A stretch of 64,000 nt of DNA. It comes from a virus. A program made the translations under genes and the position numbers. The stretch lies in the IMG/VR virus record IMGVR_UViG_3300031772_000001, positions 1-64,000 of that record. One strand, 5' to 3'. Below the pieces are notes generated by a model. The model worked only from the letters and a program-made list of their open reading frames with translations, ran no database searches and was not told where the DNA came from. Below are positions 4,301-60,083 of this stretch, piece after piece (position 1 is the first letter of the stretch; each line of letters begins with the position of its first letter).

Positions 4301-4477
4301 TCCTGCTTGCGTATAGGTTGTGGCAGACGCTTCAGCTATCTGAATTGTACTAATTATTAGTCCGGCTGAGGAACTTGACAATCCCGTAAGACCTGCACCT
4401 GTAGATACTGAAGAGTCCATTAACTTGACTCTTAATACTACACTCGTAGGTGATACACCATAACAGAGCTTTGCCAT
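1352..4477 (-). CDS. Gly/Ala/Thr-rich repeat protein, probable tail fibre/adhesin
   Basis: 1041 aa with dozens of ~15-aa GxGIxAxGGxT-type repeats flanked by non-repetitive domains; tail-gene context. Confidence 0.7.
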   Translation of the reverse strand: MAKLCYGVSPTSVVLRVKLMDSSVSTGAGLTGLSSSSAGLIISTIQIAEASATTYTQAGSTIETIATLGTYAAPTATKCRFKEVDATNHKGVYEIHIADARFASTNSLLISVSGATNLAQADFEVQCNLLADGAAGSATLKQMTISNSGGDALVLTSSGSNGNGLNATGNGTGAGFKITGGATGNGETISAGATSGHGISVTGVGTSYNGIYAVGSATTGNGILAIGGGTSGDGIKATSTSGNGMTLTGGTAGHGLSATGAAAGNGIIATGGNSATTAGLKCTGGTTLACGIYALGNTAGHGISAVGGATDGASGISASTSATNSSAILALGTGTGHGVSATGGANVASGGIAALGGTGGQGLICTGNGAGNGIKAVGGNSAITGGIYAAGGAALANGIYALGNTAGGGIAATGGNSSTTAGLICSGGASGAHGIYTVGNVAGSGVYSIGGTTGGGMKITAGATSGAGLSCTGVGAGGHGIYAISGTTASTAGIYAIGGATNATNGMTIAGGSTSGTGLVVSATSGSAATFTAGTAGAGISATGVGTGGHGIVGTSGTTASTAGIAAVGGATNATYGMLISGGSTSGAGLYVSTTSGNGITVSAGGGNGVGMSLAGNGSGAGILSTGGATGIGVSCVGGATSGSGISGTSTSGDGLTATGGTAGHGINATGAGAGNGMLLTKGSTGFDLKCATPYSQLAAGYQDGCIWVDTVNGIAGSTSYVHGTVDKPTNLWSSALTLAAALNIKNFRIANGSAIQLTASSANYTIKGDNYTIDLNGQSISNIAIYGSSSITGVSSGTGANIYDSLVGTCTMDSAWFFRCSFTGTFTMIASATYWPLDCSDGDPTDTNPVFVYAASARIGFRDWHGGVNLNSMATGNYTIVEGNCRVIVDSNCTGGSIKLRGCMDYIDNVGGGFAGTLTQTARYNVSQAVGSVTARVTANTDQIAGSATAASRLSESAATMQAGTVDTAGFSPTSTEFETSSLTNATANYWKDRTIVWRSGNLSGQAKAITAYSLTGGRGHFTCDAFTGAPANTDAFEVV

Positions 4478-4481
4478 AAGT

Positions 4482-15356: not shown

Positions 15357-15487
15357 AACTACTTCCACACTTACTGTTTTAGTTCTTGTGTAATATCAGA
15401 GTATCCATCTGATATTTTCCTCATACACTTAGCCAATGCCTTACTCTCCACACCTCTCTGATCTTCCCCCTCAGCAATCACCTTTAC

Positions 15488-16630
15488 TTGAGGTGTGTAC
15501 CCTATCCGGCCAAATGCCTATCCTCCACAGTTTATAGTGGACAGACTTTTCTGGCAGGGTTCTTTAGCCGCCCTGTGCAAAATGTTAATGGCTGCGTTAT
15601 AATCCGCGTCCATCTCCACTTTACAATCAATACACTTGTACCGCTCGCCCACACGAGACTCCTTGTGTATTGATCCACACACTGAACAAGTCTGGGAAGT
15701 GTAAGCTGGATTGACCTTTGTAAGAAGAACACCGTTCTCCTCACAAGTTCTCACCAGCTTACCTATTGCCGATAAATAGACCCAATACTGCAACTTGTTC
15801 ATAAACTTTGTCGAAATTCGATGATCCTTCTTAGAATTTCTTTTGACGTTCTTTAGGTCTTCTATAGCAAGACTGTTTACGTTTGACAGGTCTAACTCGT
15901 TCACAACTCGGTTAATTTCATTGTCCCGGAATCTCAAACTCTGCTTAAAATTCTTAGAGTTCCTTACCTTCTTTGATATGTCTGTACAAACTTGCTCAAT
16001 ATCGGTCCCTAAAAACTGACCATCGGAAGTTGAAAGCAATTTCTTGTAGCCAATATCAACTCCCAAAGACTTACCTGTAGATTTTATTACAGGTGCCTCT
16101 TTCTCAAAAGTCAAAAACACAAAATACTTGCCGGATTCGTCTTTGGTTAATTTGATGTTCTTCTTACGCTTCCAATCAGCATACTTCAAATAATGCTTGT
16201 GATACTTGATTGGTAAGTTTATTGTGACTGCTCGATGCTTACCATCCTGAAAATAGGGCAATCGAATATGAATAAACTCATCAAAATGACCATCTTCTTG
16301 TACTTCAATATCAAACATCCGGTCATCCAACGAGATTGAAGTATTTTGTATCTCTGGCTTTGATTTTTTCTGTTTCTTCTGATTGGACCTGATAATCTCA
16401 GATGCTTGCTTATATAAAATTTGTTTCCAAGCAGAATAAGTAAAAAGATTTGAAGGACAATCCTTAGAACTGAGAAACTTCTTCAGTGGAAGTTTCTTAT
16501 CCCAAATTTGATCTATATAAAACTGTAAGTCAACCTTATAGTCTTGAAATAACTGGTCTAATTGCTTAGACTTAGTACCAGTTTGATACTTCAAAATGTG
16601 TTTGGTTGATCTTAACATAATTATCTATGT
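15488..16630 (-). mobile_element. Solo IS200/IS605-family (IS1341-like) TnpB element
   Basis: Right end ends in TCAA (15491-15488); inferred left junction follows TTAT (16634-16631); removing it restores a short ORF; no tnpA in the window. Confidence 0.65.
15518..16618 (-). CDS. tnpB: RNA-guided endonuclease TnpB
   Basis: RuvC-I GVDIG, RuvC-II AIEDL, VNPAYTSQTCSVCG and CIDC zinc finger, RuvC-III DADYNAAINIL. Confidence 0.93.
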   Translation of the reverse strand: MLRSTKHILKYQTGTKSKQLDQLFQDYKVDLQFYIDQIWDKKLPLKKFLSSKDCPSNLFTYSAWKQILYKQASEIIRSNQKKQKKSKPEIQNTSISLDDRMFDIEVQEDGHFDEFIHIRLPYFQDGKHRAVTINLPIKYHKHYLKYADWKRKKNIKLTKDESGKYFVFLTFEKEAPVIKSTGKSLGVDIGYKKLLSTSDGQFLGTDIEQVCTDISKKVRNSKNFKQSLRFRDNEINRVVNELDLSNVNSLAIEDLKNVKRNSKKDHRISTKFMNKLQYWVYLSAIGKLVRTCEENGVLLTKVNPAYTSQTCSVCGSIHKESRVGERYKCIDCKVEMDADYNAAINILHRAAKEPCQKSLSTINCGG

Positions 16631-23329: not shown

Positions 23330-26275
23330 TTACTTTCGATCTTCAGGAGACAAGAACACACCCTTCAAGAAATTCACAGCACTTACCTTCTTTCCTTCAA
23401 AAAGATTACCCATCTTCTCATAGGTTAGTGACCTGAAAACATTGAGAGACGGAACCCTTCTGAGGTCATTCTCTTTGACCACCCTACTGAGGCAGGAACT
23501 AAAAGCAAGAACCGCTTTGTTGAAGTCCATATTTTCCGGCAAAAGTTTTCGGATATTTCTATGCAAATCAGTCCGCTTCAAAACCTCCGCTCGAAGATTA
23601 CCCAAGATTTCCTCAGACAAAACCTTCTTTGCCACACCCTCATAATACTCTGGTGTTGCCTTCTCATAAGCATCAATTGGTGTCAAACTTCGATCATACA
23701 TCTCAGTCATAAAAGCAGAAATCTCTTCGTGATCCTTATGAGACAGGGACAAATTCTTTGCCCTCATCACATTCAAAGCAGAATAGAACTCGGGGTAAAT
23801 TTCAACAAACCGATCATACAAACCCTCACAAACCTTGCTGTCTGTCAACTTATCAAACTCAACAAGCAACGGGCTTATAGCACAAAGAGTAGCATCATCA
23901 AGTTTTGAAAACTCCTGCAAAGCATCTGTATCAACCTCTAAGTTTTCTGAATACTTTTTGATGTTTGCTACAATCACACCTTTATCTGCATCCCCAAACT
24001 TATACACAAGAACATTCTCTACAATAGCAGGAATATTAGAGTTTCCTAACAAAGAATCCGCTATCTCTATACCCCTAAACTCAACACCAAAACGCTTACA
24101 AGATTCAGTCAGCTTCTCAATTCGCTTCTCTTGATTATCCTCGTTTATATGGGAGTTGTTCAAAAGATGAAAAACTTCCACAATTGCGGAATCATAAGAC
24201 AAGCTCTCTTCCACTTCCAAAGCAGAGAAACCGCATCGGCCACACTTACCACCAAACCCTTCACAAGCACACCTTGGGCAAATCATACTCTTTACCCCCA
24301 CCCCAGAGGAAAGAACCTGCTCAAGATCGTACCCACAATCCGTACAGTGCTTTGGATAACGCCCACGATACTTCGGAATCAACATCCCGCACGAAGGACA
24401 CTGGCCCTTGTACTTGATCTTGTCAAAAGCAGTCTGCATCCCCGGAGTCATGCCTTGCTCATTTGTCTGCTCATCCGTCTGCTCCCCAAATCTCTTAGCA
24501 ACCTTTTCTATTGCATTCAACATCCTCTCTTCTTTCTTTGCACACTCAGCACAGAAAAGACCAAACGCCTTATTAGAAAGTTCACCTTCTTTACCACACC
24601 TCGCACATTTACCTGTTTTCTTAGAAGATCCTTCTTCTATCTGCTCCCAATTCATATTATTTGCGAGATACTGAGCATGAAGATCATTTACTACCTTCAT
24701 ATCCTTAATACCAAACTGTTGTGAAAACTGAGTAAGAGTCTTACCAGTATCTTTCAAGTCAGAATGATCCTTAAACCAATCAAACATCTTTCGTGTGATA
24801 TTCACACCAGACTCATTTACCTGCTCATTCTGGTCAATAACACTGCCTTTCTTATGAAAAGGAGGATACGTCACCAGAGCATCACCTTCTTTGTTGACCA
24901 TGTAATAACCAGCCAACGTACTATCTTTTACCCTACTCTCATATCCCATCTTCTTAGCAAGTGCATCAAACTCTTTCAAAGTAATATCTGAGGCAATTAC
25001 CTTCGCTTTTCCAGTATCAGTTGTTTCCTTGTTTACCAAAGCAACTGACACTTTAAGAGTTACTTCTACTACCTGCTCATCAAACTTTTTATCCATCGGT
25101 ATAGCTGCATCAGTCCTTACCCCGGAAGGGGGCTTTTCTCTTTTCGATATAAACCAACTATCTCTGTCCTTCCCCTGCCACGCAATAACACCCTTTGGCA
25201 ATTTACCAGCATACGATTTTACAGCCTTGTATGTCACCAAATATGTCCCACCATCCATGATATTCTTTATCATCTTCTCTAAATCATCTGTATCCTCAAT
25301 TATTACATCCTCTTTTATCTCTGACATCTTCTTTACATTCGTAGCCCAATCAGGCAACTCACCTCTCACCAAATACCAAGTCTTATCCCCGTTCTTTTCT
25401 TGAAACGCATGAGTATCTTGGGGAACCTTACCAATAAACTGTTTCAGGTCTTTCTCACTTCCGATCTTAACAATAGCACTCTCTAAAGACACCAAAATAC
25501 CTTGCAAGTCTGTACTAGCTACCCGCTCTACCACTACCTGCTCACTAACTCCCTCTTTCTTAGTCTGTGATTTAAGCACGTCTTTCAAAAAATCTATAGC
25601 CTTAACAGCATACCCATCAAATATCTTTCTTGTTCCTTTGAAAAGAGCTACCTTTCCAACCTTATCAATATTGCTTCTCTCAAGAGTAGCCTTGAAAGCT
25701 GTATTGTACTCAGTAATGTACTTATCAAGCTCTTCCTCGTCTACCTTACTCTCACCCACCACAGAAGCCTCCGGCTGTACCAAGTGCTCCCCACACTCAG
25801 GACAAAACTTAGGATACCTGCCTGGGTAAGTAGGAACCACAAACCCGCAACTGTCACACTTCTTCCAAACATTACCCTTAGAAACACTTCCGTAAACAGC
25901 CTTTCCCATACCCGGAGTCATCTGCTCATTCAATTTATCCAAAACAACACTGGCAACAGTACAGATTGTTGCTGCTTCCTTTGTTGTAATTACTGATTCC
26001 ATGTACTTACGAAAAAGAGAATCAAGAAATATTCCCAAATCAGAAATTCCTGATATGGAATCCTTATCTACACCCTTGACTTTTTTCATTAAGTCAAGTA
26101 TACTCTTAGAAACTTCTTTTGCTTGGGATTTTACATCGGAAGGGAAGTCAACAACAAAATCTCCAAGAGCCTTCAGGAACTCGGCTCCCTTTTCGAGATC
26201 AGAAATTGACTTCACATACTGCGAAGGAACCGACTTAGAAACGGCATCTTCAAATGCATTCTGTTGACCTAACAT
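23330..26275 (-). CDS. Large modular head-region protein with several zinc ribbons
   Basis: Duplicated MTPGM...CxxCG...YxGRYPKxCxxCG module; many xxE linkers; start taken at MLGQQ. Confidence 0.7.
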   Translation of the reverse strand: MLGQQNAFEDAVSKSVPSQYVKSISDLEKGAEFLKALGDFVVDFPSDVKSQAKEVSKSILDLMKKVKGVDKDSISGISDLGIFLDSLFRKYMESVITTKEAATICTVASVVLDKLNEQMTPGMGKAVYGSVSKGNVWKKCDSCGFVVPTYPGRYPKFCPECGEHLVQPEASVVGESKVDEEELDKYITEYNTAFKATLERSNIDKVGKVALFKGTRKIFDGYAVKAIDFLKDVLKSQTKKEGVSEQVVVERVASTDLQGILVSLESAIVKIGSEKDLKQFIGKVPQDTHAFQEKNGDKTWYLVRGELPDWATNVKKMSEIKEDVIIEDTDDLEKMIKNIMDGGTYLVTYKAVKSYAGKLPKGVIAWQGKDRDSWFISKREKPPSGVRTDAAIPMDKKFDEQVVEVTLKVSVALVNKETTDTGKAKVIASDITLKEFDALAKKMGYESRVKDSTLAGYYMVNKEGDALVTYPPFHKKGSVIDQNEQVNESGVNITRKMFDWFKDHSDLKDTGKTLTQFSQQFGIKDMKVVNDLHAQYLANNMNWEQIEEGSSKKTGKCARCGKEGELSNKAFGLFCAECAKKEERMLNAIEKVAKRFGEQTDEQTNEQGMTPGMQTAFDKIKYKGQCPSCGMLIPKYRGRYPKHCTDCGYDLEQVLSSGVGVKSMICPRCACEGFGGKCGRCGFSALEVEESLSYDSAIVEVFHLLNNSHINEDNQEKRIEKLTESCKRFGVEFRGIEIADSLLGNSNIPAIVENVLVYKFGDADKGVIVANIKKYSENLEVDTDALQEFSKLDDATLCAISPLLVEFDKLTDSKVCEGLYDRFVEIYPEFYSALNVMRAKNLSLSHKDHEEISAFMTEMYDRSLTPIDAYEKATPEYYEGVAKKVLSEEILGNLRAEVLKRTDLHRNIRKLLPENMDFNKAVLAFSSCLSRVVKENDLRRVPSLNVFRSLTYEKMGNLFEGKKVSAVNFLKGVFLSPEDRK

Positions 26276-29200
26276 GGAGTAATTTTGCCCTTTCCTGTAT
26301 TGCAGGAACTCGAAGGTCACTGTGAGAAGGTTTATTGACCCTCTCTTTAATCCAAAACCCAGAACCCACTAAATTTCGGATTTTTTCGGCTCTTACTTTG
26401 GTAGTACCGCTACCGTTGGAGCCATCACCTTCTTCTTGAAGTATATCAAGTTCTGACTCAACACCCTCTTCTTCACCTTCACCCTCCTCGCCACTCCCAC
26501 CTTTTCCTCCACCCTTACCCTCCTCATCCCCTTCATCATCGCCGCTTGGCTTTCCCTTCCTTCTTGGAACCGGAACAGAACCACGAGAACCAAGAGCATC
26601 AGACTTCGAGGAAGAAGACTTATTTCCTAACAACTTATCAATATCAAGATCGGGAAATGCAAATATCTGCTTGAATATGTACTCAACATACATCTTCTTG
26701 TTGATAATTCCTTCCATCTCCCCAGACAAACCAAGCATAGACGTAGCAATACCAATCTTTCTTTCCGTGTACTCCAAACGAGAATCTTCCTCTGCCGAAG
26801 AAATTGGAACCATCCCAATAGACAAATCTTCAACACTTATATCCTGACTGTACTTGTAAGACAGGTGAATTTGAAATAGCCGATACATCCCCTCAATAAG
26901 TGCCCTCTGCACCTTCTTGACCATACGAGCATATCGAATATCCAAACGAGTAAGAGTCTGTGAACCAGAAAACCCCGGTATACTTTCAGAATTGTGAACA
27001 AACACACCACAAGAGAGAGAGAAGTTGTGGTTGTCACTTTCAACAGTTAAATCATAAGCATCTTCAACAACATCAAGATATTCTACATTTACAACTCTAT
27101 GATTGTAACAATTTGCTGCCATCTTCCTTTCAGAAATCATCTTACTATTTGCTTTAGCTCGACAAACCCTCTGGCATCTAACACAGCAAAACCTTGGTGT
27201 CTGTAAGTATGAAGAAATGTCGTTGTAAGGAACCTTCTTCATAAACATCTTCCCACACTCATCACAACAAATCTCAAACTCCTGTGGGTGATAATCACCC
27301 CACCTACCCTGAACCATCTTACCCTTCCAAGAAGCAAACTCAGGACTATCAGGGGAAATAGTCTTCATATAATTAAAGGATTTTCTTCTCCCCTCCTGAA
27401 TAGCCTTAATTATTCCCTGCCTTGCTTTCTCTCTATACTCAGGATTAGCCATCGGGTTATTCTCACCCTTCTGGTAATCCCTGTTAATACCCATCAAAGA
27501 CTTTGATACTTTTGCACCAAACCCATCCGGCTTCTTTCTCCCTTTTCCCAAAACAGACATTCTTTTGGAATACTCAAGCCTCTCCTCTGAAGACATAGCC
27601 TCCCGTCTCTTCCTTGCTGAAACACTTCCCAAAGACCTGCCCATATCTAAAACACTTGCCATCTCTGGATGATACTTAACAAAATGCTCTCGCCTATTCT
27701 CACAAATTGCCAGATTTAAGGCATCATTATTACTCTTGACTTTATCTCTATGATGAACAACTTGCTCAGAAGATAGAACCTTCCCACCATTCAACAAATC
27801 TTCTGCAACAAGACGGTGTACCCGAACATAATGCCGATCCTTATTATCAATAATTCCATAATATCCCTTCTCTGCCCCAGACAACTCAAAGTAATATAGA
27901 GGCATTAAAGATTCCCCAGAGACAAGTTTCTCTGCCTCTTTGTAAGACCCATCTCTTAACATACACCTATGGTCAGGGGTAACGTCAAAATATTCTCCGT
28001 TATCAAGATGCACCCTAACATACTTCGCATTAAGTCGCGTCTTGTTAATATCAGAGATATTCGTGGCGTGAACCCTGCCATCCTTATCACTTGTAAAAAT
28101 TGTCTTGCCCCTGAAATATTCCTTATTCTCAAACATCTCCCTAATAGTAGGTGTAGTTCCATCACATAACCGAATACCAGTGTTTCCTCTCAAACACATT
28201 CCTAAAAATGCGCCGGGGATGCGGATAGCTGCAAGTAGCTTATCCCGAATATACTCAATATCAACTATGTCTTTTATGTTTACATCACCACCAACCGTCT
28301 CAACTCGCATATCCCCTTTTGTACCTGTATAGGGAATAAAAACCTCGTCATTATACTGCAAAGGATTGTACTTCATACGATAGAAATTCACAGGAATATC
28401 TATTGCCTTCTTCTGCATAAATTTCTGCTCAAGATCCTGAATCAAATCCCTACGCTCATCCTTTGTCATACCCTCAGTATTTACATAAAACACACGTATA
28501 AGGGGAGATCGGGCAAGACGAGCAAGAGCAAGAGAGACTTCAAGCAAATTCAGGATACGATAAATCAATCTTGCGTTCTGCAAAATTGACGTACCATACA
28601 TCGAAGTAAGAATCTTTTCAACTAACTTACGCTCACCCTTCGGAACATCCCCACGTCTATTTGCATCAATCATCCTACGGGAAGGAGATTTCTGAGGATC
28701 ACCGCTATCAACATCCCAAGTTGACTTATCAAAAGGTTTTGTATCCTTTGTCTTATCTCCATACTCAGCAGGCTCATCCTCGGCCTCCCCTGTCTTATCC
28801 TCCCCCTCCACAGACTTTTGCATTTCATCTTCCCACATCTTGACCTTTACAGACTCAAAATTGGGTTTGAAGTTGTTGATGAAATGCACATACCCTGAAG
28901 AGTCCATTATCTCTTCCTTACGGGCAGAAATATCCTTCTTGATAAAACAAGCAAGTTTTCCGTCTATGTCAATACGATAAACACTTTTTGGATGTTCCGA
29001 CTCACGAATATTAGTGATCCCTTCACCCTTCTTAGGGTAAACCCTTAACATGAAATCACCATACTTCGCAATATTATAGGTCCACCCCCAAACCTTATTC
29101 TCAAAATCAATTGTTGAAAGAAACTCTTGAAGTTCGTGGCCGTACTTATGCTTTCCACCAATCCATAAAGTACCATTCATTTCATGGGAGTATTGTGTAG

Positions 29201-29483
29201 CATCATCAACAACTAACTCCAAAGCAGATGAAATAATTGGATCTTCTTCCATCTGATCATAATCAGAATACCGAGATTCACGATCTTTTTCCAGTTTCGT
29301 AGCAGCAGAAAACAACTCCCAAACACGACCCTCATTCATCAAAACTTTTACAGTATTCGTTGCCTTATCATCAACAACATACACCTCATTTGACTGACCA
29401 TTTTTTGCATCAGCCTGAAGAGCCTCAAGAACAATATTCTCGTTGACTCTTAACCCACCCTTTTCAAACAGACGAACAGACAT
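26250..29483 (-). CDS. Portal protein (T4 gp20-like) containing an intein
   Basis: YDQMEEDPIISSALELVVDDA; KYGDF; LARLARSPLIRVFYV; DIEYIRDKLLAAIRIP; LTRLDIRYARMVKKVQ. Confidence 0.9.
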   Translation of the reverse strand: MSVRLFEKGGLRVNENIVLEALQADAKNGQSNEVYVVDDKATNTVKVLMNEGRVWELFSAATKLEKDRESRYSDYDQMEEDPIISSALELVVDDATQYSHEMNGTLWIGGKHKYGHELQEFLSTIDFENKVWGWTYNIAKYGDFMLRVYPKKGEGITNIRESEHPKSVYRIDIDGKLACFIKKDISARKEEIMDSSGYVHFINNFKPNFESVKVKMWEDEMQKSVEGEDKTGEAEDEPAEYGDKTKDTKPFDKSTWDVDSGDPQKSPSRRMIDANRRGDVPKGERKLVEKILTSMYGTSILQNARLIYRILNLLEVSLALARLARSPLIRVFYVNTEGMTKDERRDLIQDLEQKFMQKKAIDIPVNFYRMKYNPLQYNDEVFIPYTGTKGDMRVETVGGDVNIKDIVDIEYIRDKLLAAIRIPGAFLGMCLRGNTGIRLCDGTTPTIREMFENKEYFRGKTIFTSDKDGRVHATNISDINKTRLNAKYVRVHLDNGEYFDVTPDHRCMLRDGSYKEAEKLVSGESLMPLYYFELSGAEKGYYGIIDNKDRHYVRVHRLVAEDLLNGGKVLSSEQVVHHRDKVKSNNDALNLAICENRREHFVKYHPEMASVLDMGRSLGSVSARKRREAMSSEERLEYSKRMSVLGKGRKKPDGFGAKVSKSLMGINRDYQKGENNPMANPEYREKARQGIIKAIQEGRRKSFNYMKTISPDSPEFASWKGKMVQGRWGDYHPQEFEICCDECGKMFMKKVPYNDISSYLQTPRFCCVRCQRVCRAKANSKMISERKMAANCYNHRVVNVEYLDVVEDAYDLTVESDNHNFSLSCGVFVHNSESIPGFSGSQTLTRLDIRYARMVKKVQRALIEGMYRLFQIHLSYKYSQDISVEDLSIGMVPISSAEEDSRLEYTERKIGIATSMLGLSGEMEGIINKKMYVEYIFKQIFAFPDLDIDKLLGNKSSSSKSDALGSRGSVPVPRRKGKPSGDDEGDEEGKGGGKGGSGEEGEGEEEGVESELDILQEEGDGSNGSGTTKVRAEKIRNLVGSGFWIKERVNKPSHSDLRVPAIQERAKLLHVRSTECI
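26991..28196 (-). mobile_element. Intein (402 aa) with HNH homing endonuclease in the portal gene
   Basis: GM|CLRGNT...TPDHRCML...VHHRDKVKSNNDALNL...GVFVHN|S. Confidence 0.9.
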
Positions 29484-29772: not shown

Positions 29773-32298
29773 CTATATAGAAGAAAACAAACCGTGGTCT
29801 ATCCCACCATAATCACCCGACTCTAAAACCTTCACCAACTTCAACTCTTTCCCTGTCTTTGGATCAATCCTCTTAGGCATAACCCAACTATCATCAGACT
29901 GAGCTTCCTGTCTCAACCCAAGTGTAAACACTATATCCCCAACAACCTCAGCATTAGTACGGCCAGCAAAATAAGAAGGATCAGCTTCAACAGCGTTCGC
30001 ACAAGCGGCAACAAGAGCATCACTACAACCCTTGTCCCCTCTTGTACCATCATCATTTACATCAGGGTGATCTACCTTCTTAGATTCTACGAAATGATTA
30101 AGGTTAAAAAACTCCCGCTCCAAAATGGAGTAGTTGTACATAATAAGTCTATCTTCATAGATCAAATCCACTACTTGAAGATAAGCAGAGTCATCCTTAT
30201 CAACAGACCTTCTCGCAGCATTAAAAGAGTTTGCTGTAAATATCTGAATTGTATCTTCTGATTGGTACTGATCTAACGAAATCTTCCCAAACCTCATACC
30301 CATCTGCCGAAGTTCAAAGATAAACTTACGGATTTTAGTGAATGAAATCCTATCAGGACTCTTGGGGGCCATCACAGACAAAACAATATCAGTCTCCAAT
30401 TTTGGTATTCTCAACATCGTATTCGGGTCTTCGATCATCTCCGCTATGTGAACAATAGCAAGACCCAAAGTATCATGTGTTGTTGCATAGTCAAGGTGAA
30501 CATACCTCAATGCTTCAGGGTGACGTATTAGCCCCTTGTAACTCGCCTTCCCACTCTCAATCACTTTGTTAAACATCAATTCTGGTAGAAAATAATCTAT
30601 AAGATGCTGTGTTGTTTTCAGGGATATTGTAAAAGTCTCTTTTGTAAAAGGATGTCTTATCTCTGAAGAAATACACTTCTGCCAAGCATACTTCGAGGAA
30701 AACAACTTACCAGACGGTGATATAGACACACCAGCAATATTCCTCAAAGCTCCATACACATCATCTATAAAGTTTTGCTTAAAGTCCATCGGAACTGCTA
30801 CGAAATTATCTATAAACTTAGCTGGTAACTTTACCATAACATCAGACACAGCTTTATCCGTGTCCACACTCTTACCATCTGCAATCATCTTATCCCTAAT
30901 ATCAATAATCTTGGCTCTTATAGCATCAGAACTCATAGGAATAAGACCATTTACAGACGTAACAATAAAAGCATCTTCATTTTCAGAACCCTGAAATACA
31001 AAGAACCTATCATTAGAGTAGTTCCCCGGCTTAACATCCCAAAGAGTCGTAATAAAAATCGTCGCTGAGTTGTACTGTCTGGCTTGCCTAATTCGAGAAG
31101 AAACAAATGAAGACTGAATTGAAGCAGACGAAATAATAGCAGAAAATCCAGGGTCATAACCCTTCATCATAAACCGAGACATACGACGGTCTGTAACTTC
31201 CCTGTAAATCTTAGCCGCCTTTGCAGCATCACCAACTGAGGCACCTGAACCACCCCTACGGTAGAAGTCAGCCTCATCCATAATACACCCAAACAAGTTC
31301 GTTGATATAACAGAGAGATTATCAGAACCCGGAAGGATTGCTATACGTTGAGGAAATTTGAGGATGGACTTGTATGTTCGGTCACGCGGGAACTCTTTTC
31401 GGAAGTACGGTATTGAATCCACCATCGACCTAAACTGCCCAAACCCAACTCTCTCCGCATGTGTCATGTTAATTGACAAATATGCAAACACTATGTCCGT
31501 CATGTCAGACAAACCAAACAATCTCTGAGGATAGTCATAACAAGACAATTCATAAAGTTTTCTAAGCCAACACACGAAAGCGAAGGTAGTCTTACCTGCA
31601 CCTATTGAATTATGAACAAAAACACCAGAGGAAAGAGCAAAGTTATGGTATTTCTCTACCTCAAAATCATACACATCCTCTTTTTCCTCCAACTTTCTAA
31701 CCACCACTACTCTTACAGGACAGGTTAAAAAACTCATCAAACCATCACCCGCCAAAAGCTCTTCCGCACTTCTATAAGAACCATCATCCAACATCCACAA
31801 ATGATCAGGAGTACATCGTTCTTTACCTCCATTACTAAGAACTACCTCTACAATATCTTTTTGCAAACCTGTTTTTCTACATCTACTTGCAACACCAATG
31901 CCATAATGACCATCCAAAGAACAAGATACTACATCAAAAACATGACCAGATTCAGCTAACTCTTTTATTGTTCTATCCCGAAGGTCATATAACCGTATCT
32001 TAGTAGAACCAACAAAACATCCAGTAATTATAGTTTCAGGTTTTTTAGAGTCTATATAAGTTGGTAATGCTTCCTTCCAGTACGGATACAAGTCTTTCGC
32101 AAGTGATCCCAAATAATATGTGTAATTTACCCACTTATTAACAGGTACAATCTCTTTTACCTGAGTAGCTTTTAATACACCAGTCTCTTCAGAGATTGCA
32201 CGACCCAACAAGCTCTCAATAGCGGAAAATTGAGAATCACCTATACCCTCAAAGAACTTTAGGGTTTCAGGAGAGATTTTTTCTGGGATCTCTGACAT
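29773..32298 (-). CDS. terL: Terminase large subunit containing a mini-intein
   Basis: Walker A TG|SIGAGKTT after splicing; Walker B CIMDEAD; RNase H-like YVHLDYA...ISLDQYQS...KVDHP...KGCSDAL. Confidence 0.88.
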   Translation of the reverse strand: MSEIPEKISPETLKFFEGIGDSQFSAIESLLGRAISEETGVLKATQVKEIVPVNKWVNYTYYLGSLAKDLYPYWKEALPTYIDSKKPETIITGCFVGSTKIRLYDLRDRTIKELAESGHVFDVVSCSLDGHYGIGVASRCRKTGLQKDIVEVVLSNGGKERCTPDHLWMLDDGSYRSAEELLAGDGLMSFLTCPVRVVVVRKLEEKEDVYDFEVEKYHNFALSSGVFVHNSIGAGKTTFAFVCWLRKLYELSCYDYPQRLFGLSDMTDIVFAYLSINMTHAERVGFGQFRSMVDSIPYFRKEFPRDRTYKSILKFPQRIAILPGSDNLSVISTNLFGCIMDEADFYRRGGSGASVGDAAKAAKIYREVTDRRMSRFMMKGYDPGFSAIISSASIQSSFVSSRIRQARQYNSATIFITTLWDVKPGNYSNDRFFVFQGSENEDAFIVTSVNGLIPMSSDAIRAKIIDIRDKMIADGKSVDTDKAVSDVMVKLPAKFIDNFVAVPMDFKQNFIDDVYGALRNIAGVSISPSGKLFSSKYAWQKCISSEIRHPFTKETFTISLKTTQHLIDYFLPELMFNKVIESGKASYKGLIRHPEALRYVHLDYATTHDTLGLAIVHIAEMIEDPNTMLRIPKLETDIVLSVMAPKSPDRISFTKIRKFIFELRQMGMRFGKISLDQYQSEDTIQIFTANSFNAARRSVDKDDSAYLQVVDLIYEDRLIMYNYSILEREFFNLNHFVESKKVDHPDVNDDGTRGDKGCSDALVAACANAVEADPSYFAGRTNAEVVGDIVFTLGLRQEAQSDDSWVMPKRIDPKTGKELKLVKVLESGDYGGIDHGLFSSI
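31609..32019 (-). mobile_element. Mini-intein (137 aa, no endonuclease) inserted in the terminase Walker A motif
   Basis: TG|CFVGST...CTPDHLW...VYDFEVEKYHNFALSSGVFVHN|SIGAGKT. Confidence 0.92.
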
Positions 32299-37444: not shown

Positions 37445-38197
37445 CTATACCATTCCAGCAATATCCGACAAATACAGCTTCCCACTCTTAGCAAGCAACT
37501 CAAGTATCCTCTTTCCTATTACGTTTCTCAAGGGTGACTTTATAAACTTGAAAGCAACCTTAGTCATCTCTATATCAACCCTCTGCTGCTCTTTACCATC
37601 CAATTTCTTACTATTATCTACAATCAAAAAGTTTTCCCCTCCAAACAACGTCTGAAATCCTCCTATATTTCCCTGAACCTGATTCCATGCCTGTTTTACA
37701 AAATCCTCTGGAACACTTCTCTCCCTTTCTTCATTACGCTCAATAGCTACCTCCAAAGAGGTATTTACAAAAACCATGTATGTATCATACCCTATCCTCT
37801 CCATAGTCTCTTTCTGCTTTGTAATCTTCGCTAAATCCTTACCAGTACCGTCAATCACCAAAGGTAACATACCATTCACCCAATAACCCATACGAGTATC
37901 AGTAAGACGCTTCGCAGCCTCCCTTGCTGACAACTGCTTTGCATGAATCTCTTTGTTTGAAGGGTCTATGTCAAACGGAAGATTCTCTTTTTTCAAGTTT
38001 CTCTCAAATACAACATCAGAATTTACAAAATTAGCAAATCCAGCAAACATTTTCTTAGAGTAGAAGCTCTTGCCACTGCCCGGTCCCCCCGCCATAAACA
38101 CACACTTGAACAAGTTCGCATCGTTTATGCTCTCTTTAATCTCATTATCCTTAACATCGTCTTCATACATATCTCTAAGAAGAGCTTTTACTGCCAT
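37445..38197 (-). CDS. P-loop kinase (zeta-toxin/AAA_33-like) with N-terminal LLRDMYE motif
   Basis: MAGGPGSGKS; VNSD; VIDGTG; MVFVNTSLEVAIERNEERER. Confidence 0.8.
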   Translation of the reverse strand: MAVKALLRDMYEDDVKDNEIKESINDANLFKCVFMAGGPGSGKSFYSKKMFAGFANFVNSDVVFERNLKKENLPFDIDPSNKEIHAKQLSAREAAKRLTDTRMGYWVNGMLPLVIDGTGKDLAKITKQKETMERIGYDTYMVFVNTSLEVAIERNEERERSVPEDFVKQAWNQVQGNIGGFQTLFGGENFLIVDNSKKLDGKEQQRVDIEMTKVAFKFIKSPLRNVIGKRILELLAKSGKLYLSDIAGMV

Positions 38198-39191: not shown

Positions 39192-39512
39192 TTACTTTGA
39201 TCCCACTCTCTGCTTTCCGCACATAGGACAGAATTTTACACCGTTATCTGTTGCTGTACCTTCAGAAAAACACCACTTATCCCCACACTCCGTATCATAA
39301 GAGTCTGTTGTAGAGTCGTATATCCAATGACAAGTCTTCTTTGGCTTCGCACACACCTCTCCTTCCACTATGATCTCACCTCTTGGACGAACTGGAGGTG
39401 GAGGAGGTGGAGGAGGTGGAGGAGGTGGAGGAGGTGGAGGAGGTGCCGGAACTTTCTTCATTCGCTCCAATTTCTCTGGTGACGGTAAGGATCGTGGCGC
39501 GTTTGTAGTCAT
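39192..39512 (-). CDS. Poly-Pro (17 P) plus zinc-ribbon protein
   Basis: CCT/CCA codon run at 39393-39443; FCPMCGK. Confidence 0.65.
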   Translation of the reverse strand: MTTNAPRSLPSPEKLERMKKVPAPPPPPPPPPPPPPPPPPVRPRGEIIVEGEVCAKPKKTCHWIYDSTTDSYDTECGDKWCFSEGTATDNGVKFCPMCGKQRVGSK

Positions 39513-40714: not shown

Positions 40715-40918
40715 TCAACCTATAGTGTCAAGCCGTGTTTTGGGCTTTAGCTGTTGTACGAAGTGGCGCAAATTCCGCAGTGTCCGCCACGCCTTATCCA
40801 ACAGCGTGTACCAATGATAAACTATGAATGCACGCGGGAATCCTGACCAGAAATGCCACTTACCGCAATACGGATAGTTACAGAACGATTTACTTTCAAT
40901 AATGAAACCTCTCCACAT
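40715..40918 (-). CDS. Cassette ORF 1, hypothetical
   Basis: Crosses the core at FVQQLK. Confidence 0.5.
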   Translation of the reverse strand: MWRGFIIESKSFCNYPYCGKWHFWSGFPRAFIVYHWYTLLDKAWRTLRNLRHFVQQLKPKTRLDTIG

Positions 40919-40977
40919 AAACTTCTACTTTCCGGCGCGGCCTATAAATTCAGGCTTTGCGCCATTTTGTACAACGT

Positions 40978-41214
40978 CTACGCAATGGGCGATAGTTTGC
41001 CCCTACAATTACACTGGCCTACCACGACCACATGTATGCCATCGGTGTCCTCAAAATAATGAGGGCAAATTTCGGCCCTTGCGGTGTTGGGTGCCGGTTT
41101 GTCAACCACCACGCGGTTGGCCGCGCTCCAACCGATCTCCGCACTCACCATATCTATCTGATAATCACCAGGCCCTTGCGTCTTCCACCACTCACGGAAT
41201 GTCTTCGCGGCCAT
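40978..41214 (-). CDS. Cassette ORF 2, hypothetical
   Basis: GGAGG RBS; MAAKTFREWW; crosses the core at APNTA. Confidence 0.65.
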   Translation of the reverse strand: MAAKTFREWWKTQGPGDYQIDMVSAEIGWSAANRVVVDKPAPNTARAEICPHYFEDTDGIHVVVVGQCNCRGKLSPIA

Positions 41215-41270
41215 ATCACCTCCAAAGTTGACAAACTGGCATCCCAACGTCTTGCGAAACGTGCGCCGTG

Positions 41271-41486
41271 CTACAGATTATAGTGGCACACCATACACGC
41301 TTCGCCGAGCGAATACCGCCCTGCACGCTCACCACAGTTCGGACATGGCGCACTTTTGCTGTTGGTTGTCTGTTGAGCGAGTACAGCGGTTTTCAGAGTT
41401 TGCCATGCTTCATCCGCAAGAACGACATTACCTACATGTATAGCACAATTTTTCTCGATAGCATCAATAGCCTCGATTGGCGTCAT
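41271..41486 (-). CDS. Cassette ORF 3, C-terminal zinc ribbon
   Basis: AGGAG RBS; crosses the core at TTNSK; CPNCG..CMVC. Confidence 0.65.
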   Translation of the reverse strand: MTPIEAIDAIEKNCAIHVGNVVLADEAWQTLKTAVLAQQTTNSKSAPCPNCGERAGRYSLGEACMVCHYNL

Positions 41487-41555
41487 GGCATACTCCTATA
41501 ATAAATTTTAGAGCGAAATTGCAAACAACGTTCCGGCAAATTGCCGAAGTGTGCA

Positions 41556-41780
41556 TCACATTTTGGCATTTGCCTGTTGTGTGCTGTTTTTTGCGCCACC
41601 GCTGCTTTCAGAGGTTGGCGGGGATGGAACGAGCATCCAATGCGTTATTTTGCAATTATACTCGCAATGGCCAGCAATAAAATCCTGTGCGTGAATAGTC
41701 TCGATACTGCCGTTGTCAAAATGAACTAATATCGGGCCATCGTAATCCGGGACAACACCTTCACCTTTTTTGTACCACAT
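41556..41780 (-). CDS. Cassette ORF 4, DUF551-like
   Basis: GGAGG RBS; ITHWMLVPSPP; crosses the core at STQQA. Confidence 0.65.
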   Translation of the reverse strand: MWYKKGEGVVPDYDGPILVHFDNGSIETIHAQDFIAGHCEYNCKITHWMLVPSPPTSESSGGAKNSTQQANAKM

Positions 41781-41832
41781 AGCCAACCTCCTATAATTTG
41801 AAAGCGCAAAAAATTGCATACAACGTTTTGCT

Positions 41833-42090
41833 CTATTGCGACGTGCGTGACAACCACTTGTCAACCTTATTACGGTAGCACTCCGAACAACGCGGAGATT
41901 TGGTCCGCACAAAAACGCACTCTCCGCATGGCGTAATAGCGCTGTTGGGTGCCGTGGAATGAGCATCCGCCAGATAGTGGCCACAGTCGCTGCACAAAGA
42001 ATAGTTGCTGTCCCGAACTATGCATACATCTCGCTTAATGCAATCAAGTTTTTTGTGGCCACCTATAACCTCCAAGCGAATGAATGGCAT
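41833..42090 (-). CDS. Cassette ORF 5, Cys-rich hypothetical (start uncertain)
   Basis: Crosses the core at APNSA. Confidence 0.5.
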   Translation of the reverse strand: MPFIRLEVIGGHKKLDCIKRDVCIVRDSNYSLCSDCGHYLADAHSTAPNSAITPCGECVFVRTKSPRCSECYRNKVDKWLSRTSQ

Positions 42091-42104
42091 CCCAACGATC
42101 CGCG

Positions 42105-42329
42105 CTACTGGTTCCGTTGCTCGATCTCACGCAGAAAATCACAAAACCTCATTTTTTGCGCATCAGACCGAGAAGAAGACAATGCCAGTTTGCGCACGAG
42201 AGCAATGGCATCTATAGCGCTGTTGGGTGCCGTTGTTGACAATTCCTCCGGTTTGGAGGCGCAGCGATCGCACGAACCTGCCGGTATGCCGTGCTGACAC
42301 CACCCGTTGAGCAATACGCTATCATTCAT
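42105..42329 (-). CDS. Cassette ORF 6, hypothetical
   Basis: GGAGG RBS; crosses the core at APNSA. Confidence 0.65.
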   Translation of the reverse strand: MNDSVLLNGWCQHGIPAGSCDRCASKPEELSTTAPNSAIDAIALVRKLALSSSRSDAQKMRFCDFLREIEQRNQ

Positions 42330-42396
42330 TTTGCGCCTCCTCGGCATATCGACTTGTCAACTATGGCATCCCAACGTCCGAGCAATGTACGCAGTG

Positions 42397-42609
42397 CTAC
42401 TGCTTGTGACAAATCGGAACTCCGGTACAGCAACAACTTTTGATAGGATACTTGCAGCTCGCATACAGAGAGCATTGCGTACTTGCTTTGTTGGTGGATG
42501 TAAATCTTTCCACCATAGCGTTCTGTGCGGCATTCCAGACGTTGCTATACTTCTCCATATCTCCGCCGCCGCCAACGTTGCTCCACCACTGCTCAAATGT
42601 CATTTCCAT
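42397..42609 (-). CDS. Cassette ORF 7, hypothetical
   Basis: MEMTFEQWW; crosses the core at STNKA. Confidence 0.65.
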   Translation of the reverse strand: MEMTFEQWWSNVGGGGDMEKYSNVWNAAQNAMVERFTSTNKASTQCSLYASCKYPIKSCCCTGVPICHKQ

Positions 42610-42672
42610 GCCGCACCTACAATTCCAAAGAAAGGTTTATTTCCACCAACGTTTGCGCAACAGCCGAAGCCG

Positions 42673-42936
42673 CTACGCCCCCTTGCTACGCTTACGCGGT
42701 TTTGGCTTTGCGCTGTTGTTTGTTGTTGCCGTGCGCTCAACTGCTTTCTGCGCGGCGGCGATTTCGCTACGTAACGATTCAATAGCTTTGTCAACGCCGT
42801 GACCAAGGTTGTCCTTTAACATACTGTCGAAAAGCATAGAATACACTTGGTCGGTGATAATGTTTTCGGCGTTGACATAAGGATATCCAAACTCACGCAT
42901 ATTGCGGATAGCCGCAGAAATCAATTTATCTCGCAT
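42673..42936 (-). CDS. Cassette ORF 8, hypothetical
   Basis: AAGGA RBS; MRDKLISAAIRNMREFGYP; crosses the core at TNNSA. Confidence 0.65.
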   Translation of the reverse strand: MRDKLISAAIRNMREFGYPYVNAENIITDQVYSMLFDSMLKDNLGHGVDKAIESLRSEIAAAQKAVERTATTNNSAKPKPRKRSKGA

Positions 42937-42987
42937 ACATTCCTTTCCGCCGCGCCTATAATATGGTCGCACGGCAATTGCAAACAA

Positions 42988-43275
42988 CTACCTCAATAAC
43001 GCACTCTCAAACCGTAGACATTTCTCTTTTTCTCTCCTTAATTCCTTTACTTCCCGAAACTTACTTGCATTATCAACCTCTAACCAAGTAACCCTCTGTT
43101 GTAACCTGTCAATCTCTTTTCTTAACCAAGCAACCGCATCCGAAGTACCATTACGCTTATTATCCTTACTCTCACTCTCATTCTCACTTGTAAGTCTTTT
43201 TGCAATTCCGAGTAACCAAGTGTTATCCCTGAGATACACACGCGAATTTACAACAACATCAATGCCCCGCACCAC
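42988..43275 (-). CDS. Hypothetical coiled-coil protein
   Basis: Its TAG stop overlaps the first GTTG of the cassette array. Confidence 0.55.
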   Translation of the reverse strand: MVRGIDVVVNSRVYLRDNTWLLGIAKRLTSENESESKDNKRNGTSDAVAWLRKEIDRLQQRVTWLEVDNASKFREVKELRREKEKCLRFESALLR

Positions 43276-58690: not shown

Positions 58691-59278
58691 TTAGGCAACC
58701 AGAGACTCCTCAGACTCATCAACCGCCGGACCACGCACCACCACATAATCTGAAAAAATGTCCTCTATGATCTCAGCCGTAGTCCTCTTGTCATACCAGA
58801 CGTTCAATTCAGTAATACGGTTGTTGCACTCCTTGGCATCATCAATGTATTTCTTAGCCTTACTTAACGCACCACACCCCAAGGCATCAAAAACTTTCCT
58901 CAAAATCGTCGCAGCAGTGTCTTCACCATCAACAAGAACTGTGTTTTCTTTTGAATCTAAAATAAATTCATGGAAAACTCGCTTTGAAAAGACAGGCACC
59001 TCCGACTTTGGCAGCTTCCGAAGATAGTAAAATTCCCGCATCAAGCGTGGAAGATCGGCCTCCCGAACAGACTCCGGGGATAAGCTATACTCTGGCATCA
59101 CCGAATCATCACGCACGAGCTTCTGTATCATCACAAGATATACCTTGTCACCAACGGCAATCTGTGACCAAAAAGGCTTCTGATTCAGTGCCTCAAGCAC
59201 CAAATCGTCCTCAGCAATCAGCATGTACTTCTTATCATAAGACAAGAACCTCTTCTTGAACAACTCAAGATCCTGCAT
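58691..59278 (-). CDS. Hypothetical protein
   Basis: 195-aa ORF. Confidence 0.65.
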   Translation of the reverse strand: MQDLELFKKRFLSYDKKYMLIAEDDLVLEALNQKPFWSQIAVGDKVYLVMIQKLVRDDSVMPEYSLSPESVREADLPRLMREFYYLRKLPKSEVPVFSKRVFHEFILDSKENTVLVDGEDTAATILRKVFDALGCGALSKAKKYIDDAKECNNRITELNVWYDKRTTAEIIEDIFSDYVVVRGPAVDESEESLVA

Positions 59279-60083
59279 TGATTACCCCACTTCTTAGAAC
59301 ACGAATACGTTCTTCTGCTACCTGACAATACTTCTCTTCCTTCTCAATCCCAATAAAATTTCTTTTGGTATTTATACAAGCAATCGCAGTTGTTCCTGAT
59401 CCTATGCAATTATCAAGAACAACATCATTTTCATTTGTGTAAGTACGAATAAGATACTCAAACAATGCTACAGGTTTTTGGGTTGGGTGAAGCCCCGCCT
59501 CCCTCGCATGATATGCTGTTGAAAATTCTACAACAGAACGAGGATACCCGACATCAGTACCTACAGAACGAAAAACCCCTTCCGTAAATTTACCACACGT
59601 CTCAGTCATCACTGTTTTTTGTGCTGCTCTATGACTTGGCTTTACAAAAAATTGTGGGTTATATGGAGGAACACCATAACAAAAAATAAGAATATCCTCA
59701 TGCTGTCGAAGAGGACGCTTTTTTGCATTTAAGAACCCGACAGTATTAGACTTTCTCCAACACATATCATACTTAAAGTTTGAGACATTGCTCATCACTA
59801 AAGCAGAAGTAAATGGCTGTGACGCAGTTAGTACAATGACACCATTACAGATTCTCTCATACTCCTTCCATAACGGCTCAAATGGAATAACTGTGTCCCA
59901 TTTACACTGTGTAGTTCCATAAGGCAAATCACATAACACCATATCAATACTCTTATCAGGTATTAATGGCATTACCTCAAGACAATCACCATGAATTATT
60001 GTATTTATTTGCAACGCACCATCTCCCGTTAGATACTCTCCCCGGCCACGGTGAAGTTGTATTGCCAGCCCTTCTCTGTCCAC
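59265..60083 (-). CDS. DNA amino-methyltransferase (N6A/N4C, beta-type order); start may be downstream
   Basis: IHGDCLE...LCDLPYG...HPTQKPVAL...VLDNCIGSGTT...GIEKE. Confidence 0.92.
   Translation of the reverse strand: MDREGLAIQLHRGRGEYLTGDGALQINTIIHGDCLEVMPLIPDKSIDMVLCDLPYGTTQCKWDTVIPFEPLWKEYERICNGVIVLTASQPFTSALVMSNVSNFKYDMCWRKSNTVGFLNAKKRPLRQHEDILIFCYGVPPYNPQFFVKPSHRAAQKTVMTETCGKFTEGVFRSVGTDVGYPRSVVEFSTAYHAREAGLHPTQKPVALFEYLIRTYTNENDVVLDNCIGSGTTAIACINTKRNFIGIEKEEKYCQVAEERIRVLRSGVINAGS

Follow-up and report, generated by a model that had tools for sequence, protein, structure and literature searches.

A probable integron-like array of eight mini-cassettes, with reading frames that run through its predicted hairpin joints, in a T4-like phage

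The described systems that come closest to the locus reported here are the phage CALINs, clusters of attC sites lacking an integrase (Qi et al., 2023; PMC9892861), and the promoter-early stem-loop (PeSL) cassettes, motifs from the hyperplastic regions of T4-type phages (PMC2839356, PMC4122927). We analysed a stretch of 64,000 nucleotides, here called the window, which covers the opening 64 kb of a virus record that is complete, 167,660 bp long, and carries direct terminal repeats (IMG/VR record IMGVR_UViG_3300031772_000001, positions 1 to 64,000). On its minus strand, at 40715–42989, lies a series of eight co-directional mini-cassettes. We read this series, with a probability of about 0.7, as an integron-like array of mobile units without a recombinase gene of its own, set in the accessory region of a T4-like phage.

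As in CALINs (PMC9892861), small promoterless cassettes stand in a co-directional array and no integrase is encoded. The joints between cassettes are predicted, like attC sites, to be imperfect hairpins bounded by inversely oriented AAC and GTT cores, the sites here measuring 54–133 nucleotides, compared with about 55–141 for attC sites, which have R and L boxes, an unpaired spacer and extra bases on one arm; each cassette opens with bases that complement its own distal core, which is what a crossover at G|TT would lead one to expect; one whole cassette is common to two genomes, with breaks at GTTG; and methylases are found among the cargo of related arrays. The array differs from integrons in that its open reading frames (ORFs) run through the site, the loop of which encodes a selected peptide, in that the cognate complementarity reaches 18–25 nucleotides with an internal loop of its own, and in that exchange takes place on the CAAC side too, parting the head of a protein from its tail. 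Since an integron integrase is lacking, only the integrase-less CALIN form is possible. The array is integron-like, or CALIN-like, but non-canonical, and its translated sites and its reassortment of heads and tails lie outside that description. The usual view of integrons is that their sites are non-coding structures in the DNA and that a cassette cannot be divided; here the structured site would be a selected protein segment as well, and one recombination system would give both gene exchange and exchange of protein domains. Full-text literature searches returned no account of phage recombination hairpins that are coding, which is not proof of absence.

Eight consecutive minus-strand ORFs of 67–87 amino acids fill 40715–42936, and for most of them a Shine-Dalgarno sequence is plainly recognisable upstream. 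Every ORF passes through a single CAAC core and stops 0–27 nucleotides ahead of the next (A)CGTTG core, and the cores alternate regularly, eight CAAC with nine GTTG. For ORFs a to h, the first C of CAAC lies at 42718, 42493, 42225, 41947, 41579, 41364, 41089 and 40756, and the G of the following GTTG at 42650, 42375, 42096, 41824, 41529, 41248, 40975 and 40719, respectively. The junction is read as AAC (Asn) in six of the eight ORFs and as CAA (Gln) in ORFs e and h. An earlier note, made from the letters of this DNA, had described eight minus-strand ORFs each crossing a CAAC core, six of them in the same frame, with the junction peptides APNTA, TTNSK, STQQA, APNSA (twice), STNKA, TNNSA and VQQLK; ORF coordinates and core positions agree with it on every one of these points. 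Where it placed the stop codons within the loop of an attC-like module, a correction is needed: the stops do precede the next GTTG, but they sit where the loop ends on its 3' side or in the descending arm rather than strictly within the loop.

ORF a (42673–42936, minus strand as are all the others; 87 amino acids, CAAC at 42715–42718) has a short basic tail. ORFs b (42397–42609; 70 amino acids, CAAC at 42490–42493) and g (40978–41214; 78 amino acids, CAAC at 41086–41089) both combine a TFxxWW-type head with a Cys-rich tail; as the earlier note had claimed, the two heads are related (BLASTP E 5e-6, 29% over 49 amino acids) and the tails are not. ORF c (42105–42329; 74 amino acids, CAAC at 42222–42225) has a helical tail, and its type of arm and leader recurs in contigs L133 and L134. 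ORF d (41833–42090; 85 amino acids, CAAC at 41944–41947) has a CxxC...CxxC tail and no relatives among 5.8 billion proteins; its start is uncertain because the ATG lies inside the 5' arm without a clear Shine-Dalgarno sequence. ORF e (41556–41780; 74 amino acids, CAAC at 41576–41579) has a head like DUF551/phrog_924 and a short tail, and ORF h (40715–40918; 67 amino acids, CAAC at 40753–40756) ends with a stop codon that overlaps the last GTTG (40716–40719). ORF f (41271–41486; 71 amino acids) consists of a variable N-terminus, a conserved block ending at CAAC (41361–41364) and a CxxC...CxxC tail. An AlphaFold model of ORF f, which was of low confidence (predicted local distance difference test score 69) and was not used for fold searches, shows one long helix and a small knuckle, with a linker at the core. 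An 8-bp palindrome, CAACGTTG, that amounts to two cores abutted and resembles an 'empty' joint lies on the minus strand within the head of ORF b (42573–42580).

Coding density and core frequency both set the array apart from its background. ATG-started ORFs of at least 60 amino acids cover 84% of its sense strand, compared with a mean of 11.5% and a maximum of 52% in shuffled sequences, and 52% of its antisense strand. ACGTTG occurs seven times against 0.58 expected (12-fold enriched, P 3e-6), and the array is strongly enriched over the genome in the leader motif TTATAGG and in the cores.

Computed folding of the segments from CAAC to the next GTTG, which span 54–133 nucleotides in seven units and about 40 in the last, gave imperfect hairpins. 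In these, CAAC and GTTG form the base, followed by 1–2 unpaired nucleotides on the 5' side and 4–5 on the 3' side, a second stem and a variable loop; the two-stem form with this consistent asymmetry was found in six of seven sites. The halves of the tail hairpins paired more stably with their cognate partners than with non-cognate ones (−13.9 versus −8.7 kcal/mol, permutation p 2.5e-4). Fold and cognate pairing together define the minus-strand tail hairpins A-b (42647–42718, 72 nucleotides), B-c (42372–42493, 122 nucleotides), C-d (42093–42225, 133 nucleotides) and E-f (41526–41579, 54 nucleotides), while the tail segment D-e (41821–41947, minus strand, 127 nucleotides) gave the weakest hairpin.

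A second tier of complementarity encloses the heads. The 18–25 nucleotides after each GTTG are complementary to the 18–25 nucleotides before the next CAAC (pairs I1–I6), and the head and its ribosome-binding site are thereby bracketed by their own inverted arms, each pair made up of a 7–9 bp stem at the core, an internal loop of 4–5 nucleotides and a GC-rich second stem. Pairing energies again separated cognate from non-cognate arms (−16.6 versus −7.9 kcal/mol, p 5e-5). The bracketed heads, given without strand, are those of units a (42715–42988; 21 nucleotides, 86% complementary, I3), b (42490–42650; 21 nucleotides, I4), c (42222–42375; 21 nucleotides, I5), e (41576–41824; 21 nucleotides, I2), g (41086–41248; 18–22 nucleotides, I6) and h (40753–40975; 25 nucleotides, I1). 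The 5 × 5 internal loop of unit h, AAAAT/ACTTC, is seen again, with covarying stems, in two cassettes of the unrelated contig L119. The homologous TFxxWW heads of b and g, and one in contig L137, carry three different arm pairs, each internally complementary; because one arm is coding and the other non-coding, these pairs represent compensatory evolution.

It could be supposed that the hairpins are messenger RNA structures, serving processing, stability or translational control in small paralogous genes whose modularity reflects uneven divergence. All units are co-directional and transcribed together, and in f-type units part of the conserved 3' block is complementary to both the Shine-Dalgarno sequence and the ATG, as such a function might lead one to expect. 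We nevertheless regard this explanation as highly improbable. In the arms, 131 of 132 base pairs are Watson–Crick and one is G–T, and both strands fold about equally well; the near-absence of G–T pairs and the similar stability of the two strands point to a structure of DNA rather than of RNA. Furthermore, the stems of other unit types leave the ribosome-binding site uncovered, an Rfam search gave nothing relevant and no family match, and stretches of 99.65% and 100% identity beside unrelated sequence, described below, speak for recombination and not divergence.

The integron-like reading is also supported by exchanges between phages. Cassette f, taken as the 286 nucleotides from GTTG to the next GTTG (41244–41529, minus strand) and including both head and tail, is 99.65% identical over its whole length in IMG/VR contig L141, from GTTG to the next GTTGG, and the DNA just outside it is unrelated between L141 and the window. 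To the left of the cassette in L141 stands a homologue (52–63% amino acid identity) of the ORF that flanks the array in the window (42988–43275); the locus is therefore the same one, filled in a diverged phage with another set and order of cassettes. The transfer of cassette f, in which head and tail moved together, is the most recent event seen. The whole cassette is the main mobile unit, and this qualifies the idea of head–tail swapping put forward in the earlier note.

Tails are also found joined to unrelated heads. Tail module F (41244–41363, minus strand) is 93.4% identical over 121 nucleotides to contigs L132, L133 and L134 (protein P0005, found with ORF f as query), in which the head and the arms are unrelated; the identity starts at AAC and stops at GTTGG. 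Tail module G (40964–41083, minus strand) is 83.5% identical over 121 nucleotides to positions 3837–3957 of L119, again beside an unrelated head; the matching stretch opens directly behind CAAC and reaches slightly beyond GTTG, and it is the sole similarity of that 8-kb contig to the entire 167.7-kb phage. At the protein level, the one protein that ORF g retrieved was P0002 (contigs L119 and L120); it shares the tail only, between the junction Asn and the stop codon (81% of amino acids). With ORF c as query, phmmer returned two proteins that have one head in common and whose tails keep only the ends encoded by the hairpin stem and differ in the loops; P0020 and P0021, also matched, were discarded as chance similarities to repeat proteins. 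Three transfers thus lack flanking homology and have a core of 4–6 nucleotides alone in common: those of cassette f (L141), tail F (L132) and tail G (L119). DNA exchange between phages is shown by these alignments to break at two inverted 4-nucleotide cores.

Tail sharing of this kind would also be left by autonomous miniature palindromic elements, similar to miniature inverted-repeat transposable elements or to the palindromic elements of Rickettsia, inserting at AAC/GTT at the ends of genes and there tolerated, or taken into use to extend the protein in frame, the cassette arrangement being secondary. The tail modules, about 120 nucleotides long, are the only sequence common to otherwise unrelated phages, they are imperfect palindromes translated in frame, and CAACGTTG inside ORF b would be an empty target. 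Such elements would not, however, account for the arms, which bracket heads and not tails, for a whole cassette that moved as one, or for relatives in which the stem ends of a tail are kept and the loop is replaced, a pattern that transposition of a single element does not predict. Very few copies of each tail type were found, and no transposase match was present in the genome. Rickettsia palindromic elements are dispersed, high-copy, in-frame insertions inside conserved protein genes; the likeness is that palindromic DNA is translated as part of a protein, whereas the palindromes here are the joints of a cassette array, occur at low copy and supply C-termini. We therefore consider insertion of such elements improbable, though somewhat less so than the messenger RNA explanation.

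Further combinations of heads and tails were found within the f-type family. In L151/L152 and in L147/L160, head DNA is 100% identical from the ATG to just past CAAC and the tails are unrelated. The head of ORF f is joined to another tail in P0006 (L136), the L160 tail recurs on the P0013 head, and L171 and L137 have a common head and different tails. A dozen proteins share with ORF f only a block of 17 residues (EAWQTLKTAVLAQQTTN) that ends at the core. In DNA, this 51-nucleotide block and an untranslated leader of 45 nucleotides are nearly invariant across unrelated contigs, while cargo and tails vary. Scans with the leader found 3 viral contigs, 27 metagenome contigs and 1 contig of a metagenome-assembled genome (MAG), and in the 27 metagenome contigs the combinations of heads and tails are reticulate. 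A tandem duplication of about 48 nucleotides, beginning at CAAC and repeating the first part of the tail, was observed in an f-type cassette of the 219-kb IMG/VR contig L143 (approximately 3630–3730).

The earlier note had proposed that exchange at the core could swap N- and C-terminal halves in a combinatorial generator of small proteins, to be checked by asking whether the same N-terminal half is joined to different tails exactly at the AAC codon. The pairs L151/L152 and L147/L160 have one head on different tails, tails F and G stand on different heads, and the opposite outcome, halves that always occur as fixed pairs, did not arise. Head–tail exchange at the core is therefore largely supported by the comparisons. 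The exchange shown is one across a phage population, and an active generator inside a single phage would be a further proposal. Inversion of tails between inverted cores was rejected, since all matches in related loci are co-linear. Pattern searches for further modules were uninformative: an 18-mer and a 25-mer found nothing in IMG/VR, a 16-mer gave 11 chance loci without arrays, and a 14-mer made from core and arm gave single chance matches in at least 117 viral contigs, the apparent multi-motif loci L040, L012, L088 and L048 being GC-rich coding DNA and not arrays.

General recombination at short conserved leaders and blocks, as in PeSL-type shuffling, is the explanation in which the hairpins would be irrelevant. 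PeSL cassettes have in common with this array a T4-like phage, an accessory region of ORFans, short stem-loop motifs that flank swappable genes, the lack of a dedicated recombinase and cassettes that may circulate between phages. The near-invariant f-type leader and block would serve as linkers, the breakpoints in L151/L152 and L147/L160 fall at the end of the block, and cassettes 1 and 3 of L119 have the same frame, with identical arms, leader and tail, around different cargo. The phage is T4-like and has no recombinase of the known families tested, and the precedent is established (PMC2839356, PMC4122927). PeSLs are, on the other hand, intergenic sigma-70 early promoters with GC-rich terminator stem-loops, exchanged by homology. 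The sites here lie inside coding sequence, their arms covary by unit, and neither promoter-like sites (3 versus 3.5 expected) nor terminator-like sites (3 versus 2.8) are enriched. Unit-specific, covarying inverted arms are not needed for homology-driven exchange, and cassette f, tail F and tail G are flanked by unrelated sequence. Plain homologous recombination would suffice for the f-type swaps but not for these three cross-family events; among the head–tail exchanges, only the two cross-family tail sharings, F and G, would require exchange at the core itself. We consider homology-driven shuffling an unlikely explanation of the array as a whole, though it is the likeliest of the alternatives to the integron-like reading. 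A sigma-70-like match, TTTGCA-16-TATTAT, was observed within the conserved f-type leader (41498–41525, minus strand).

For evidence that the tails are translated, we compared tail G with its L119 counterpart. Both copies keep the ORF frame open, and it shows 0.37 synonymous differences per synonymous site (pS) and 0.10 non-synonymous differences per non-synonymous site (pN), a ratio of 0.27 (Fisher p 0.005). On the antisense strand, the frame in phase with it gives a mirrored ratio but is interrupted by stops, and the only other open frame gives 1.8. At CAAC the two copies are in different phases on entering the tail, and a difference of 1 nucleotide in spacer length restores the frame of the tail. 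The low ratio without stops, in the ORF frame only, together with the frame-restoring indel, supports translation of tail G, probably under purifying selection.

Unrelated phages carry arrays of this type, which are present in the 168-kb T4-like genome, in contigs of 219 kb and 41 kb and in many fragments. The array of the window is matched in architecture by L119, which holds a methylase and other cargo, and the cargo of related arrays includes enzymes: C5 and Dam methylases and Mom. From this context, the products of the window array are plausibly small two-part accessory proteins with an anti-defence function, and methylase and Mom cargo beside micro-proteins suggests that phages may generally use the arrays to exchange counter-defence functions among themselves. 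Several observations concern this cargo. The C5 DNA methylase of L119 (1305–2700) is apparently interrupted: a short ORF with the N-terminal motif of the methylase stops, a 148-amino acid ORF comes next, and the motif then appears a second time, separated from the main methylase ORF by a TGA in frame; an insertion of the homing-endonuclease or intron type could be responsible. A DNA methyltransferase gene in the window lies outside the array (59265–60083, minus strand), and its homologues adjoin f-type leaders in L142, L141, L150 and L153 (up to 81% of amino acids, in L142). The sole match in prokaryote genomes, L171 (DATKTT010000184.1, 3.9 kb, from a Williamwhitmania sp. MAG, a Bacteroidota bin), carries at least 3 cassettes and a C5 methylase, and may be either a mis-binned phage fragment or a hint to the host.

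The order of parts suggests how the array may work. A cassette begins with the GTTG core and a 5' arm with leader and Shine-Dalgarno sequence, followed by the head ORF, the 3' arm, the CAAC core and the predicted tail hairpin up to the next GTTG. The 3' arm lies inside the ORF and is complementary to the 5' arm, and the ORF reads on through CAAC, the hairpin encoding a C-terminal tail that is often a small Cys-rich knuckle. Breaks at GTTG move whole cassettes, and breaks at CAAC and the next GTTG swap the tail alone to give new head–tail fusions. If a cassette were circularised, its two arms would combine with the tail hairpin into one long composite hairpin, much as in an integron cassette whose crossover lies in the GTT core. 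The hairpins may act as folded single-stranded DNA like integron attC sites, and use of both strands would place crossovers at GTTG and at CAAC; the enzyme would be an IntI-like integrase of the host or an unrecognised phage protein. Alternatively, copy-choice may be at work, a polymerase switching template at the bases of the hairpins with the cores as microhomology. We rank attC-like recombination of folded strands first, copy-choice second and plain homologous recombination in leader and block third.

Searches of the complete 167,660-bp genome gave no match for a tyrosine recombinase or integron integrase (PF00589, E ≤ 1), a serine recombinase (PF00239), an IS200-type Y1 HUH transposase TnpA (PF01797) or a reverse transcriptase (PF00078). 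In an all-against-all clustering of ORFs from the genome and about 158 kb of array loci, a DNA methyltransferase was the only recurrent family besides the cassette proteins. The absence of PF01797 and PF00078 leaves the array without what defines an IS200/IS605-type hairpin element and a diversity-generating retroelement, respectively. Shufflons and DNA invertases (Rci of R64 pilV; Gin, Cin and Hin) invert DNA between inverted repeats, with alternative exons on opposite strands and the recombinase gene adjoining. They resemble the array in that one N-terminal part acquires alternative C-terminal parts by site-specific exchange; they differ in that all eight ORFs here are co-directional, that neither PF00589 nor PF00239 is matched in the genome and that the exchange is between genomes. 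A complete genome without a known recombinase turns the enzyme, or an enzyme-free mechanism, into a concrete question that can be tested. Two TnpB-like ORFs were noted, to neither of which a link with the arrays was found: one of 366 amino acids with a Cas12f1-like TNB domain, 25 kb from the array (15518–16618, minus strand), and one of 440 amino acids near the array in L151/L152, whose N-terminus is TnpB-like by eye only.

Several points weigh against an integron-like system. The consensus RYYYAAC/GTTRRRY is not fitted by about half of the sites, GTTGTTT, GTTGTAT, GTTGTAC and ACACAAC breaking the pattern; the asymmetric spacer (1–2 versus 4–5 nucleotides) differs from that of canonical attC sites; and neither long outer arms nor translated loops are attC features. 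The outer arms of units d and f are weak. All pairs with the same head and different tails belong to the f-type family, in which the 51-nucleotide block is conserved up to CAAC, so that ordinary homologous recombination, for which the 45-nucleotide leader and the block would give room, explains these pairs equally well. The estimate of non-synonymous relative to synonymous change in tail G derives from 17 differences in 34 codons. Among the known families tested, no recombinase turned up in the phage genome, nor did the ORF clustering show one recurring beside the arrays. Finally, the folding of the hairpins is predicted, and cleavage and circular cassettes are a proposal. A fuller version of the integron-like reading is no more than tentative, and we would sooner doubt it than assume it: a hairpin system shared by diverse uncultured phages, with two inverted cores and translated sites, in which GTTG crossovers move genes and CAAC crossovers reassort heads and Cys-rich tails in frame, driven by template switching during replication or by an enzyme that does not belong to the known integron integrases. 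If true, it would be a case of natural domain shuffling at a recombination site, and cargo framed from start codon to 3' arm would show the birth of cassettes, an open question for integrons.

The setting of the array is that of an accessory region. The T4-like genome encodes a T4-type portal protein with an intein, a clamp-loader-like ATPase and the TnpB-like protein, and the minus strand bears nearly all genes of the window and a strong excess of G. At about 40.9–43.0 kb the GC content rises to approximately 0.49–0.55, compared with about 0.41 around the array, and the GC skew, −0.3 to −0.5 around the array, collapses. Genes similar to the restriction-alleviation gene Lar flank the array on both sides; this and the compositional island mark the locus as an accessory, 'hyperplastic' region. 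No second array was found elsewhere in the 167,660-bp genome, and blastn and tblastn gave no match in cultured phages. The flanking protein at 37445–38197 has no relative in IMG/VR, which leaves no close sister genome for a comparison of insertion and empty sites.

Other features of the window were noted in passing. The T4-type portal gene is split by an intein (Intein_splicing, residues 439–831), and a second large ORF also matches intein splicing (26250–29483 and 29773–32298, minus strand, for the two). A long tract of homopolymeric codons, poly-Pro on the minus strand and poly-Gly on the plus strand, occupies 39370–39510 within the ORF at 39192–39512. In the tail-fibre-like ORF at 1352–4477, a segment of 128 amino acids (4097–4480) is 65% identical to positions 15403–15786 of L135, a 41-kb phage contig that is otherwise unrelated to the phage of the window and also carries an f-type cassette; the two phages may share a host.

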